The notes under the pieces were generated by a model that was not told the origin of the DNA, made no database searches, and was given only the letters and a program-made list of their open reading frames with translations. This document shows positions 48,640 to 49,686 of a stretch of 64,000 bases of DNA, one piece after another. Position 1 is the stretch's first letter. Every line of letters begins with the position of its first letter. This stretch comes from Escherichia coli (lineage in GTDB: Bacteria > Pseudomonadota > Gammaproteobacteria > Enterobacterales > Enterobacteriaceae): the NCBI RefSeq assembly GCF_044324875.1, contig NZ_CP172185.1; one strand, given 5' to 3'. The position numbers were made by a program, and so were the translations under genes.

Positions 48640-48657
48640 TTCCTACAATTGTAAGAC
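48640..48657. promoter_or_regulatory. Putative EvgA box upstream of yfdX
   Basis: TTCCTACA-AT-TGTAAGAC, an 18-bp inverted repeat matching the EvgA-box consensus (TTCYTACA-N2-TGTARGAA) at 17/18 positions. Confidence 0.45.
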
Positions 48658-48792
48658 TAAAATACTTCTTGCGATAATAACTACAGCTGTAAGATAACCC
48701 TTTCAAAATGACCGTTGCTCTCTGATTTCTCATTTCATGCTCACCCAATATGATGGCGGCGTTTTCTAAAACTGTTAAAGAATGAGGTAAGT

Positions 48793-49425
48793 ATGAAACG
48801 TTTAATTATGGCTACGATGGTCACAGCAATTCTGGCATCTTCAACTGTATGGGCGGCTGATAATGCACCGGTAGCGGCACAACAGCAAACTCAGCAAGTT
48901 CAGCAAACCCAGAAAACGGCAGCAGCAGAGCGTATCTCTGAACAAGGTTTATATGCGATGCGTGACGTGCAGGTAGCGCGCCTGGCTCTGTTTCATGGCG
49001 ATCCGGAAAAGGCAAAAGAACTGACCAATGAAGCTTCAGCTTTGTTGTCAGATGACAGTACCGAATGGGCAAAGTTCGCTAAGCCAGGTAAAAAGACCAA
49101 TGTCAATGATGACCAATATATTGTCATTAATGCATCTGTCGGAATTTCTGAGAGTTATGTAGCTACACCCGAAAAAGAAGCCGCGATAAAAATTGCCAAC
49201 GAAAAAATGGCGAAAGGGGATAAAAAGGGCGCAATGGAAGAGCTGCGCCTGGCCGGTGTTGGCGTAATGGAAAACCAATATCTGATGCCGCTCAAACAGA
49301 CTCGTAATGCACTTGCTGATGCGCAGAAACTGCTTGATAAAAAGCAATACTACGAGGCAAACCTGGCGCTTAAAGGTGCGGAAGATGGAATCATCGTCGA
49401 TAGCGAAGCACTGTTTGTGAACTAA
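48793..49425 (+). CDS. yfdX: Periplasmic protein YfdX (EvgA-regulated)
   Basis: 210 aa with signal peptide; lies between ypdI and frc. Confidence 0.85.
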
Positions 49426-49668
49426 CGCTGACAGGCAGTATATTGAGGTAAAGGATTTAACTCCCTCCAGCCGACAATTTTTTATGACCACAATACGACA
49501 GGTTGTGGTCATAAAATTATTTGGCGCTCGCGGTTCTATAAACTCGCATTTTATCTTCCTCAAAGTAAACCGCAATAATCCCGTGTCATCACAAATCATT
49601 TATTATGTTATGTTTTATGGTACGCTTTAAAAAGCGTAATCATACCCTTACTTGTAAATCACCGGCGC

Positions 49669-49686
49669 TTCTTACAGTTGTAAGAA
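49669..49686. promoter_or_regulatory. EvgA box upstream of frc
   Basis: TTCTTACA-GT-TGTAAGAA, a perfect 18-bp palindrome matching the EvgA-box consensus, about 250 bp upstream of frc. Confidence 0.5.

Follow-up and report, generated by a model that had tools for sequence, protein, structure and literature searches.

Do EvgA operators control yfdX and the neighbouring oxalate-degradation genes directly, and do these genes answer to one promoter or to two? The question is raised by two 18-bp palindromes in a 64 kb window of an E. coli chromosome (the window being the whole stretch of DNA analysed here), one upstream of yfdX and one upstream of frc. Both are already-published EvgA operator sites for yfdX and the adjacent oxalate-degradation operon; the original prediction, made from the letters of the sequence, was correct in this and described something already known. 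It thus serves as a positive control, in that a tool-free reading of raw sequence recovered two established operators and the transcription-unit boundary between them.

On the plus strand, yfdX (48793..49425; 210 aa, periplasmic YfdX family, PF10938) is followed by the oxalate/formyl-CoA acid-tolerance operon (49937..55168), which comprises frc (49937-51187), oxc (51241-52935), yfdV (53005-53949), and yfdE (about 54023-55168), and whose function is taken from PMC3720670. Convergent with yfdE, on the minus strand, are evgS (55224-58817) and evgA (58822-59436), which encode the cognate sensor kinase and response regulator (evgS-evgA, 55224..59436). Small open reading frames of 25-65 aa in the yfdX-frc spacer are unsupported; they cross the box or unconserved sequence. 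The apparent length polymorphism of YfdX (192-222 aa) consists of scattered, rare in-frame indels and not of repeat-length variation.

EvgA boxes in the window

Direct reading finds both palindromes at the places where they had been claimed (all boxes are given without strand). The first, yfdX box 1 (TTCCTACAATTGTAAGAC, that is TTCCTACA-AT-TGTAAGAC; 48640-48657), lies 135 nt upstream of the yfdX ATG (48793), and the frc box (TTCTTACAGTTGTAAGAA, the perfect palindrome TTCTTACA-GT-TGTAAGAA; 49669-49686) lies exactly 250 nt upstream of the frc ATG (49937). The 18-bp EvgA consensus given with the original prediction is right: in a K-12-like genome, the same consensus also recovers the known EvgA targets safA-ydeO, ydeP, and yegR. 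The boxes do not frame the yfdX-frc module, as had been worded, and each of the two heads one transcription unit (yfdX; frc-oxc-yfdV-yfdE).

A scan of the 64 kb window with TTCYTACANNTGTARGAA, tolerating up to 3 mismatches, returned four matches against 0.49 expected, a number reached in 0 of 100 shuffles. All four fall in EvgA-relevant intergenic regions (48640-48657, 48678-48695, 49669-49686, and 59661-59678). Relative to TTCYTACA-NN-TGTARGAA, the frc box has no mismatch, yfdX box 1 has one, and a second, degenerate box upstream of yfdX (TAACTACA-GC-TGTAAGAT; 48678-48695, here yfdX box 2) has three. Box 2, which the first reading missed, is better conserved than box 1, and it is box 2 that occupies the canonical register described below. 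The remaining match, ATCCTACA-GG-CGTAAGAA (59661-59678), lies in the divergent evgA-emrK intergenic region. It is the classical emrKY site, and it served here as an internal positive control; direct binding of EvgA to the emrKY promoter is attributed to Kato et al. 2000 by PMC8174306 and PMC9496106.

The position-weight-matrix scan that had been proposed as a check was run with a matrix trained on external EvgA sites only (safA, ydeP, and yegR), the loci in the window being left out. Among 63,983 window positions, the frc box ranked first, the evgA-emrK box second, yfdX box 2 third, and yfdX box 1 fourth, which places both originally reported boxes in the top four. The score of the frc box, 22.2, exceeds the maximum of 19.3 reached in Markov-shuffled windows.

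The abstract of the Masuda and Church study of 2003 reportedly describes gel shifts on six upstream sequences. The Fig. 2 legend of PMC3720670, citing Masuda & Church 2003, marks inverted repeats at both places as EvgA-binding and as inducing yfdX and yfdWUVE. Direct EvgSA control of yfdX and frc-oxc-yfdV-yfdE, as originally predicted, is stated in that legend by way of these repeats, and physical binding of EvgA at the boxes is reported there at second hand. Additionally, yfdX, frc, oxc, and yfdV are each upregulated about 20-30-fold at pH 5.8 (PMC10746267). By their position in the sequence, the frc box and the yfdX boxes lie in promoter regions of genes given as EvgA/EvgS- or acid-induced in these two sources, and EvgA binding and acid induction are established from the literature. 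Overall, the best explanation of the palindromes is that they are EvgA operators acting on two promoters, and this is probably right.

Promoter register and transcription units

A common arrangement follows yfdX box 2, the frc box, and the boxes of other EvgA promoters: the box, 22 bp, CTCTCTGATT, and then a -10-like hexamer. This box-to-promoter register is a criterion derived in the present analysis and not a published definition. On either strand of the window, the 10-mer CTCTCTGATT has just two occurrences, both of them 22 bp beyond a box. At yfdX, the CTCTCTGATT block (48718..48727, plus strand), in which the heptamer TCTGATT occupies offsets 26-32 counted from box 2, overlaps the predicted -35, and the predicted -10, TATGAT (48749..48754, plus strand), would place the transcription start near 48761, with a 5' untranslated region of about 32 nt. 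At frc, the CTCTCTGATTACCG block (49709..49722, plus strand) holds TCTGATT at the same offsets together with a predicted weak -35, TTACCG (49717-49722). Here the predicted -10, TATTCT (49740..49745, plus strand), points to a start near 49752 and to a likely long leader of about 185 nt. From these predicted starts, the centre of the activating box would lie at about -74.5 both at frc and at yfdX box 2. Six EvgA promoters share this fixed register, with CA at offset 9-10 and TCYKATT at offsets 26-32 (reached in 0 of 2000 register-shifted nulls), and in five of the six a -10-like hexamer stands at offset 53-54 (P ~0.004).

Loci for comparison came from a scan of genome contigs with YfdX, which gave 9 loci, and further lineages were added from a protein search and contig look-ups. 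Of 5426 E. coli genomes, 5406 contain the frc promoter block at 95% identity or more. Four lineages conserve the stretch of about 75 bp from the frc box to the -10-like hexamer, and each of them has C[TC]CTCTGATTAC in it without variation, always 22 bp from the box. The box itself has at most two mismatches in Yersinia and in lineages L016 and L018, and the -10 reads TATTAT in Yersinia versus TATTCT here. A separate frc transcript with a long leader, as had been proposed, fits this conserved block, the leader length being likely on the predicted start. A search for a structured leader or riboswitch upstream of frc found no conserved structure (RNAalifold consensus -3.85 kcal/mol with scattered pairs; single-sequence z -1.2), and comparing 48000-50200 with Rfam at E<=1 returned only a spurious miRNA match, which falls on the hairpin described below.

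The genes could instead form a single operon with the yfdX promoter as its sole promoter, in which case the frc box would be redundant or architectural (for instance, anti-H-NS) and the hairpin would only modulate mRNA stability. The genes are repeatedly termed 'the yfdXWUVE operon' (PMC3720670), at pH 5.8 the induction of yfdX hardly differs from that of frc (log2 4.9 vs 4.8), and genomic SELEX reported H-NS binding in the yfdX-frc spacer (PMC3946193). However, the Fig. 2 legend of PMC3720670 itself separates 'yfdX and yfdWUVE', a conserved hairpin lies between yfdX and frc, and what follows the frc box (CA, CTCTCTGATTAC, TATTCT/TATTAT) is kept in the four lineages in the register of five other EvgA promoters. 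A single operon is thus unlikely. The SELEX study also proposed that a constitutive sigma-70 promoter, TTTATA-18-AATAAT, precedes the frc box at about 49549-49578; a frc start there would be the very outcome that the original prediction had named as speaking against it. In this strain the TTTATA element reads TTTATC, and the promoter is not conserved in Yersinia. The published start-site data searched yielded no experimental start for the yfdX or frc unit, and the SMRT-Cappable-seq supplements list neither yfdX nor frc nor oxc. For these units, Adams et al. 2021 list a single 3' end in their atlas, which is internal to yfdX (2494302, minus strand) and comes from non-inducing conditions.

With two promoters as the preferred reading, the two boxes at yfdX have to be told apart. 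Box 2 is the positional counterpart of the frc box: exactly 22 bp separate it from CTCTCTGATT, and it shares the canonical register; box 1, 38 bp further upstream, lies outside this register. Box 1 may be an auxiliary upstream site, with a predicted centre at about -112 from the yfdX start. In Yersinia lineages, box 2 and the flanking TTGCGATAA are nearly invariant and the -10 TATGAT is invariant (TATGGT in L018), and the CTCTCTGATT block is kept in Yersinia, L016, L018, and Buttiauxella. Box 1 is only partly conserved in Yersinia vastinensis, and among E. coli strains its half-sites are invariant, in contrast to its central NN and to the spacer between the boxes, both of which vary.

The opposite assignment would make box 1 alone functional, driving an extended -10, TGcGATAAT (48670-48678; start at about 48685), from a -35-overlapping position, with box 2 over the start as a limiting operator or without function. 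Box 1 does match the consensus better (1 mismatch vs 3), a promoter scan gives TTGTAA-18-GATAAT with an upstream TG, and TTGCGATAA does not vary in any E. coli or Yersinia lineage. This assignment is nevertheless improbable. For instance, the Y. alsatica islands have lost box 1 and kept box 2 with the downstream promoter. Similarly, in E. coli strain A10 a natural 38-bp deletion fuses boxes 1 and 2 into one hybrid box, which retains the box-2 register and leaves the strain without TGcGATAAT. The spacing between the boxes is also unconserved (38 bp in E. coli vs 45 bp in L018), whereas the box-2 register is that of frc and four other EvgA promoters.

The hairpin after yfdX

The spacer between yfdX and frc is long, as had been noted, and measures 511 bp (49426-49936) rather than 510 bp. 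A conserved hairpin (49480..49516, plus strand) begins 55 nt after the yfdX stop. It had been described as a 13-bp stem at 49481-49516; the hairpin is indeed present, with a stem of 15 bp (14 Watson-Crick pairs and one U.G) and a 7-nt loop (dG -19.6 kcal/mol, z = -5.3; 3' tail TTATTTGG). Between E. coli and Yersinia, the arms are identical at 28 of 28 positions, whereas identity in the flanks is only about 50%. Of the 5143 E. coli genomes matched, 4634 share an identical 61-mer at the hairpin, with one copy per genome. One stem pair is A-U, G.U in L016, and G-C in L018, a series that fits only plus-strand (yfdX-sense) RNA. Covariation gives weak statistics, the value observed over 6 sequences being reached in 63 of 500 shuffles. 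A minus-strand element is disfavoured by the folding energies in L016 (dG -18.1 on the plus strand vs -12.8 on the minus strand).

The hairpin is probably a leaky intrinsic terminator or a 3'-end stabiliser of the yfdX transcript. Like intrinsic terminators, it forms a stable stem-loop soon after a stop codon and has a U-rich tail in E. coli (UUAUUUGG, 5 U of 8). Unlike them, it has an AU-rich stem (4-5 of 15 pairs are G-C), its sequence is unusually conserved, and the U-tract is absent from Yersinia and L016 (CUCUCUG) and from L018 (GUCCUGUC). Therefore, given the few G-C pairs and the loss of the U-tract outside E. coli, it is not a canonical terminator.

The inverted repeat could alternatively act as double-stranded DNA, as an operator for a dimeric protein that regulates frc or yfdX, and not as an RNA hairpin. 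The core CCACAA...TTGTGG is invariant in every lineage, including L018, whose 785-bp spacer is otherwise unalignable, the identical arms show no compensatory drift, and the U-tract is unconserved. An operator is nonetheless quite improbable. The distance between the core half-sites grows from 9 to 11 bp in L018, which would rotate the half-sites, whereas an RNA stem merely gains two C-G pairs and keeps its 7-nt loop. Moreover, the one-sided A to G change in L016 preserves pairing, as G.U, only in plus-strand RNA, the Buttiauxella yfdX likewise ends in a terminator-type hairpin of unrelated sequence at the same place, and the repeat is found once per genome.

Conservation, mechanism, and comparison with known systems

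The evgSA-yfdX(-frc-oxc) module is also found outside Escherichia, in Yersinia and Buttiauxella, in contrast to reviews that place EvgSA in E. coli and Shigella only. An EvgA orthologue adjoins the module in Yersinia spp. (94% identity), L016 (92%), and Buttiauxella (70%). Boxes stand at both promoter positions in Yersinia spp. and L016, where EvgA is 92-94% identical and its recognition-helix region is identical. L018 and Buttiauxella have likewise kept the boxes, and both promoters there carry the TTCTGACA variant. Because the L018 contig ends, co-occurrence of box and EvgA applies to Yersinia, L016, and Buttiauxella. The boxes are conserved in place across genera, in contrast to their diverging flanks. 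Although box 2 and, less so, box 1 score within the best of the shuffled windows (16.2 and 15.2, against the null maximum of 19.3), the notion that the palindromes match by chance, as may happen in AT-rich intergenic DNA, and have no regulatory role is effectively refuted by this positional conservation, by the excess of matches, all of them intergenic and EvgA-related, and by the binding given in PMC3720670.

Under the preferred reading of EvgA operators at two promoters, mildly acidic pH would lead EvgS to phosphorylate EvgA, a NarL/FixJ-family regulator encoded about 9 kb away in the window. An EvgA dimer would bind the 18-bp inverted repeat in its 8-2-8 layout and activate two adjacent sigma-70 promoters with weak -35 elements, one for yfdX and one for frc-oxc-yfdV-yfdE, whose products would consume a proton through oxalyl-CoA decarboxylation. 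The activating box would be the palindrome at 49669 for frc and box 2 at 48678 for yfdX, each about 74 bp upstream of the start, with CTCTCTGATT exactly 22 bp after the box and overlapping the -35. Box 1 (48640), the better match 38 bp further upstream, would then act as an auxiliary high-affinity site. The hairpin would form in the yfdX mRNA and end or stabilise most yfdX transcripts, so that the frc operon, with its predicted leader of about 185 nt lacking conserved structure, would depend mainly on its own EvgA-dependent promoter; some read-through would explain the 'yfdXWUVE operon' name. The sites would in this way couple acid sensing by EvgS directly to periplasmic YfdX and to proton consumption that depends on oxalate. 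What the present work adds is a more precise picture of the promoters: their start sites are predicted, yfdX gains a second box, and EvgA promoters have a fixed register in common.

The EvgA boxes of ydeP, safA-ydeO, yegR, and emrKY/evgAS in E. coli K-12 have the same 18-bp 8-2-8 repeat and the same offsets of TCYKATT (26-32) and of the -10 (53-54). Unlike these targets, yfdX has its boxes as a tandem pair, 38 bp apart, and both frc and yfdX carry CTCTCTGATT where safA, ydeP, and yegR carry (A/G)TCYTATT. The frc and yfdX boxes are members of the same published EvgA set, from which they differ in nothing essential.

At the Bordetella BvgA promoters (for instance, fhaB), a high-affinity repeat lies far upstream and further dimers load cooperatively at intervals of about 22 bp as far as the -35; the BvgA system is the paralogous namesake of EvgAS. 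It is possible, though tentative, that all EvgA promoters share a comparable composite architecture that extends beyond the 18-bp box, with the palindrome centred at about -74 and followed at 9-10 bp by an invariant CA, the half-site-like heptamer TCYKATT spanning about -40 to -34, and the -10 53-54 bp after the box. EvgA would then load cooperatively to the -35 in the style of BvgA, with box 2 and not box 1 activating at yfdX; part of this may already be described. Unlike BvgA, the downstream occupancy of EvgA is predicted from weak half-site-like elements, the likeness being poorest at frc and yfdX. Like BvgA promoters, those considered here are served by a NarL/FixJ-family regulator and have an inverted heptad-type repeat well upstream of the -35, putatively at about -74, and weak half-site-like elements in the same orientation follow the left half-site at distances of about 20 and 42 bp (P ~0.002).

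EvgA boxes and promoter register

The palindromes that the original prediction described upstream of yfdX and frc are confirmed, and were read from the sequence exactly where it had placed them: yfdX box 1, TTCCTACAATTGTAAGAC, at 48640-48657, and the frc box, TTCTTACAGTTGTAAGAA, a perfect palindrome at 49669-49686 with the frc ATG 250 nt downstream. The window, E. coli chromosomal DNA oriented in reverse of K-12 numbering, carries in order ypdI (48222-48497, minus strand), yfdX (48793-49425), frc (49937-51187), oxc (51241-52935), yfdV (53005-53949), yfdE (about 54023-55168), evgS (55224-58817, minus strand), and evgA (58822-59436, minus strand), with emrK beyond evgA and a yfdX-frc spacer of 511 bp. 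Therefore, the regulator invoked for these sites is encoded alongside them. Positions 48200-50000 are 100% identical to E. coli strain 135, and 5422 of the 5426 complete E. coli genomes contain the stretch. An imperfect 9-bp repeat (CAGCAAACT x3.9, 48883-48917) in yfdX, at about codons 31-42, encodes a Q-rich N-terminus. Systematic repeat-length polymorphism of YfdX was rejected: the 192-222 aa E. coli variants are scattered, rare in-frame indels or duplications, and many length variants come from single metagenome assemblies (homologues P0002-P0025).

The EvgA consensus was tested independently. Searching the whole 64 kb for TTCYTACANNTGTARGAA with at most 3 mismatches gave four matches compared with 0.49 expected, a count reached by no shuffle. 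Besides the frc box and yfdX box 1, these are a site at 59661-59678 in the evgA-emrK divergent region, the classical EvgA target (PMC8174306, PMC9496106), and a yfdX box 2 (TAACTACAGCTGTAAGAT, 48678-48695) that was initially missed and that starts 38 bp downstream of the box 1 start. Applied to a K-12-like genome, this pattern returned one site each upstream of safA-ydeO, ydeP, and yegR, which are known direct EvgA targets. When a position-weight matrix built from these external sites only was used to rank the 63,983 window positions, the frc box came first (22.2 bits), followed by the evgA/emrK box (19.2), yfdX box 2 (16.2), and yfdX box 1 (15.2), with the next-best position at 12.3; the best score in Markov-shuffled windows averaged 12.2, with a maximum of 19.3. 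The consensus holds: it finds external targets, and these in turn place the window boxes first to fourth.

The 10-mer CTCTCTGATT has just two copies in the window, counting both strands, and these start exactly 22 bp past the frc box and, at yfdX, past box 2 rather than box 1. When six EvgA promoters (frc, yfdX box 2, emrK, safA, ydeP, and yegR) were aligned on their boxes, offsets 9-10 past the box were invariantly CA, and offsets 26-32 formed a heptamer, TCYKATT, with a summed information of 6.07 bits versus 3.38 +/- 0.42 in register-shifted controls (matched by 0 of 2000). Additionally, five of the six have a -10-like hexamer that begins at offset 53-54 (P about 0.004). These box-aligned features would yield a sharper model for EvgA promoters. 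For frc, the register alignment predicts a -35 TTACCG (49717-22) and a -10 TATTCT (49740-45), and transcription would start near 49752 with a leader of about 185 nt. Similarly, for yfdX the predicted -10 is TATGAT (48749-54), and transcription would begin near 48761, giving a leader of about 32 nt. The box centre would lie near -74 of the predicted start in every case. A literature search for experimental start sites at yfdX and frc found none. Regarding the separate frc transcript with a long leader that had been proposed, a promoter of its own is supported, and the leader length is a prediction of the register. On the evgA side of the evgA-emrK box (within 59600-59660), the evgA-directed strand carries ATCCCTGATTTTATTGTTGACA, which resembles the frc and yfdX CTCTCTGATT at a distance of about 50 bp, not 22 bp, from the shared box, and may be part of a differently spaced evgA promoter.

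Genomic SELEX predicted a constitutive RpoD promoter, TTTATA-18-AATAAT, in the spacer (about 49549-49578), upstream of the frc promoter proposed here, and also placed H-NS binding in the spacer (PMC3946193). This strain reads TTTATC in place of TTTATA, and the stretch shows no conservation in Yersinia. A 3' end has been mapped inside yfdX under non-inducing conditions (U00096.3 2494302, minus strand; 3'-end atlas, Adams 2021 supplement). Together, the SELEX findings and this 3' end are consistent with H-NS/Rho silencing while EvgA is inactive.

Conservation in other lineages

Orthologous loci were compared from Yersinia vastinensis (L003), Y. alsatica-type islands (L013-L015), lineages L016/L017 and L018, and six Buttiauxella species (L004-L009). 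Outside Escherichia/Shigella, YfdX identity is 82-84% for the modules of L003, L013-L015, and L016-L017 (82% in the last), 68% for L018, and 58-60% for Buttiauxella. The Yersinia and L016 loci have the full yfdX-frc-oxc-yfdV-yfdE-evgS-evgA arrangement, and their EvgA is 92-94% identical to that of E. coli, with an identical recognition-helix region. The L016-L017 module adjoins hyp genes. The Y. alsatica-type contigs carry IS1-type and other transposases, a resolvase, and a phage-type integrase around the module, a setting that suggests horizontal transfer. In L018 (Logan SRR28250961 contig, 39-4749), yfdX-frc-oxc is divergent from the adjoining hdeA and an hdeD-like (DUF308) gene, uniting two acid-resistance modules that E. 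coli carries at distant positions. In Buttiauxella (about 9880-14840), frc and oxc are absent downstream of yfdX, whose neighbours are a hybrid sensor kinase of 1087 aa, convergent with it, and a response regulator with 70% identity to EvgA; in L004, the evgA-like gene is preceded by a 2-mismatch EvgA box (14821-14838).

Intergenic identity is about 50% overall, and the frc box and a contiguous downstream block (GTAAGAATAACATCACAAAT..GCG...CTCTCTGATTAC, on to TATTCT/TATTAT) are almost invariant, so that the alignment reads as a clear phylogenetic footprint. The frc promoter block is at least 95% identical in 5406 of 5426 E. coli genomes. A half-site variant, TTCTGACA, is present in both L018 promoters, forming a perfect palindrome upstream of yfdX (1123-1140), and in the Buttiauxella yfdX promoter, where the order is TTCTGACA-type palindrome, 22 bp, CGCTCTGATT. 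Such a variant would be expected if operator and regulator changed in step.

Two natural variants support yfdX box 2 as the register site. Box 1 has been lost from the Y. alsatica islands, which have kept box 2 and the promoter. In E. coli strain A10 (NZ_CP195143), a 38-bp deletion relative to 48658-48695 has fused boxes 1 and 2, and the hybrid, TTCCTACAACTGTAAGAC, sits in the canonical register, with exactly 22 bp between it and CTCTCTGATT. The two boxes behave like a 38-bp tandem duplication. The L018 and Buttiauxella yfdX promoters have the same composite as E. coli. Among E. coli strains, the half-sites are invariant, and variation falls in the central dinucleotide and between the yfdX boxes. 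Between the boxes, TTGCGATAAT (48667-48678) resembles an extended -10 (TGnGATAAT) and is invariant across all E. coli and Yersinia lineages, with variable DNA immediately upstream; candidate roles are an alternative promoter, a part of box 2 recognition, or a site for another factor.

The hairpin after yfdX and the frc leader

The hairpin noted after yfdX, originally with a 13-bp stem, is present at 49480-49516, with a stem of 15 pairs closing a 7-nt loop, followed by the tail TTATTTGG (-19.6 kcal/mol; z = -5.3 versus shuffles). Its arms (TTTTATGACCACAA / TTGTGGTCATAAAA) are identical at 28 of 28 positions between E. coli and Yersinia, with diverging loop and flanks. At this position, L018 has a shorter, GC-richer hairpin that shares the CCACAA/TTGTGG core. 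Such symmetry could belong to a DNA operator or an RNA stem. The sole variable stem position is A-U in four sequences, G.U in L016, and G-C in L018, where the U.G closing pair is also C-G. The L016 intermediate pairs in yfdX-sense RNA only (dG -18.1 on the + strand versus -12.8 on the opposite strand), and in L018 the core half-sites are 2 bp further apart, corresponding to two extra pairs with a loop still of 7 nt. Because pairs are gained at constant loop length and the G.U is strand-specific, the comparison speaks more for an RNA stem than for a DNA operator, with weak covariation statistics (six sequences; 63 of 500 shuffles reach the observed value).

The U-rich tail is found in E. coli only, and Buttiauxella yfdX, with no frc after it, is followed by REP-like repeats or by a GC-rich hairpin of unrelated sequence. 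The best reading of this RNA stem is a leaky intrinsic terminator in E. coli or, generally, an element defining or stabilising the 3' end of the yfdX transcript, a reading compatible with the literature, where the genes are described both as 'separate units' and as a 'yfdXWUVE operon'.

In the frc leader, no conserved structure and no Rfam match were found. Strongly conserved between E. coli and Yersinia are a CTTAAATAAACGC(T/C)AAAT block (49880-49900), which lies about 45 nt before the frc ATG, and the ribosome-binding region, TTATTAAC.AATAGGTA.TGCTATG (49905-49936); the remainder is divergent.

Relation to known systems

In the 2003 work of Masuda and Church, an 18-bp inverted repeat reportedly lay upstream of all operons directly regulated by EvgA, and EvgA is said to have bound the sequences in gel shifts. 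EvgA binds inverted repeats here and induces yfdX and yfdWUVE (yfdW being frc, and yfdU oxc) (Mullins et al., PMC3720670, citing Masuda & Church 2003), and yfdX, frc, yfdV, and oxc are induced by log2 4.3-4.9 at pH 5.8 in ribosome profiling and RNA-seq (PMC10746267). Therefore, the central claim of the original prediction, direct EvgA control of yfdX and the frc operon, is correct and already published, and the interpretation is supported, separate frc promoter included. Reviews confine EvgSA to E. coli and Shigella (PMC8174306, PMC9496106). The EvgA sites at yfdX and frc being already known, the new content is modest: the overlooked yfdX box 2, a fixed box-to-promoter register common to EvgA promoters, the conserved hairpin after yfdX, and, contrary to the reviews, an evgSA-linked module in Yersinia and Buttiauxella.

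BvgA, an EvgA paralogue, forms cooperative multi-dimer arrays. As in those arrays, forward half-site-like sequences are repeated downstream of the EvgA box, at 20 and 42 bp from the left half-site (P about 0.002). The resemblance is weak, and it is poorest at frc and yfdX themselves. A BvgA-like cooperative array at EvgA promoters is offered as a hypothesis only.
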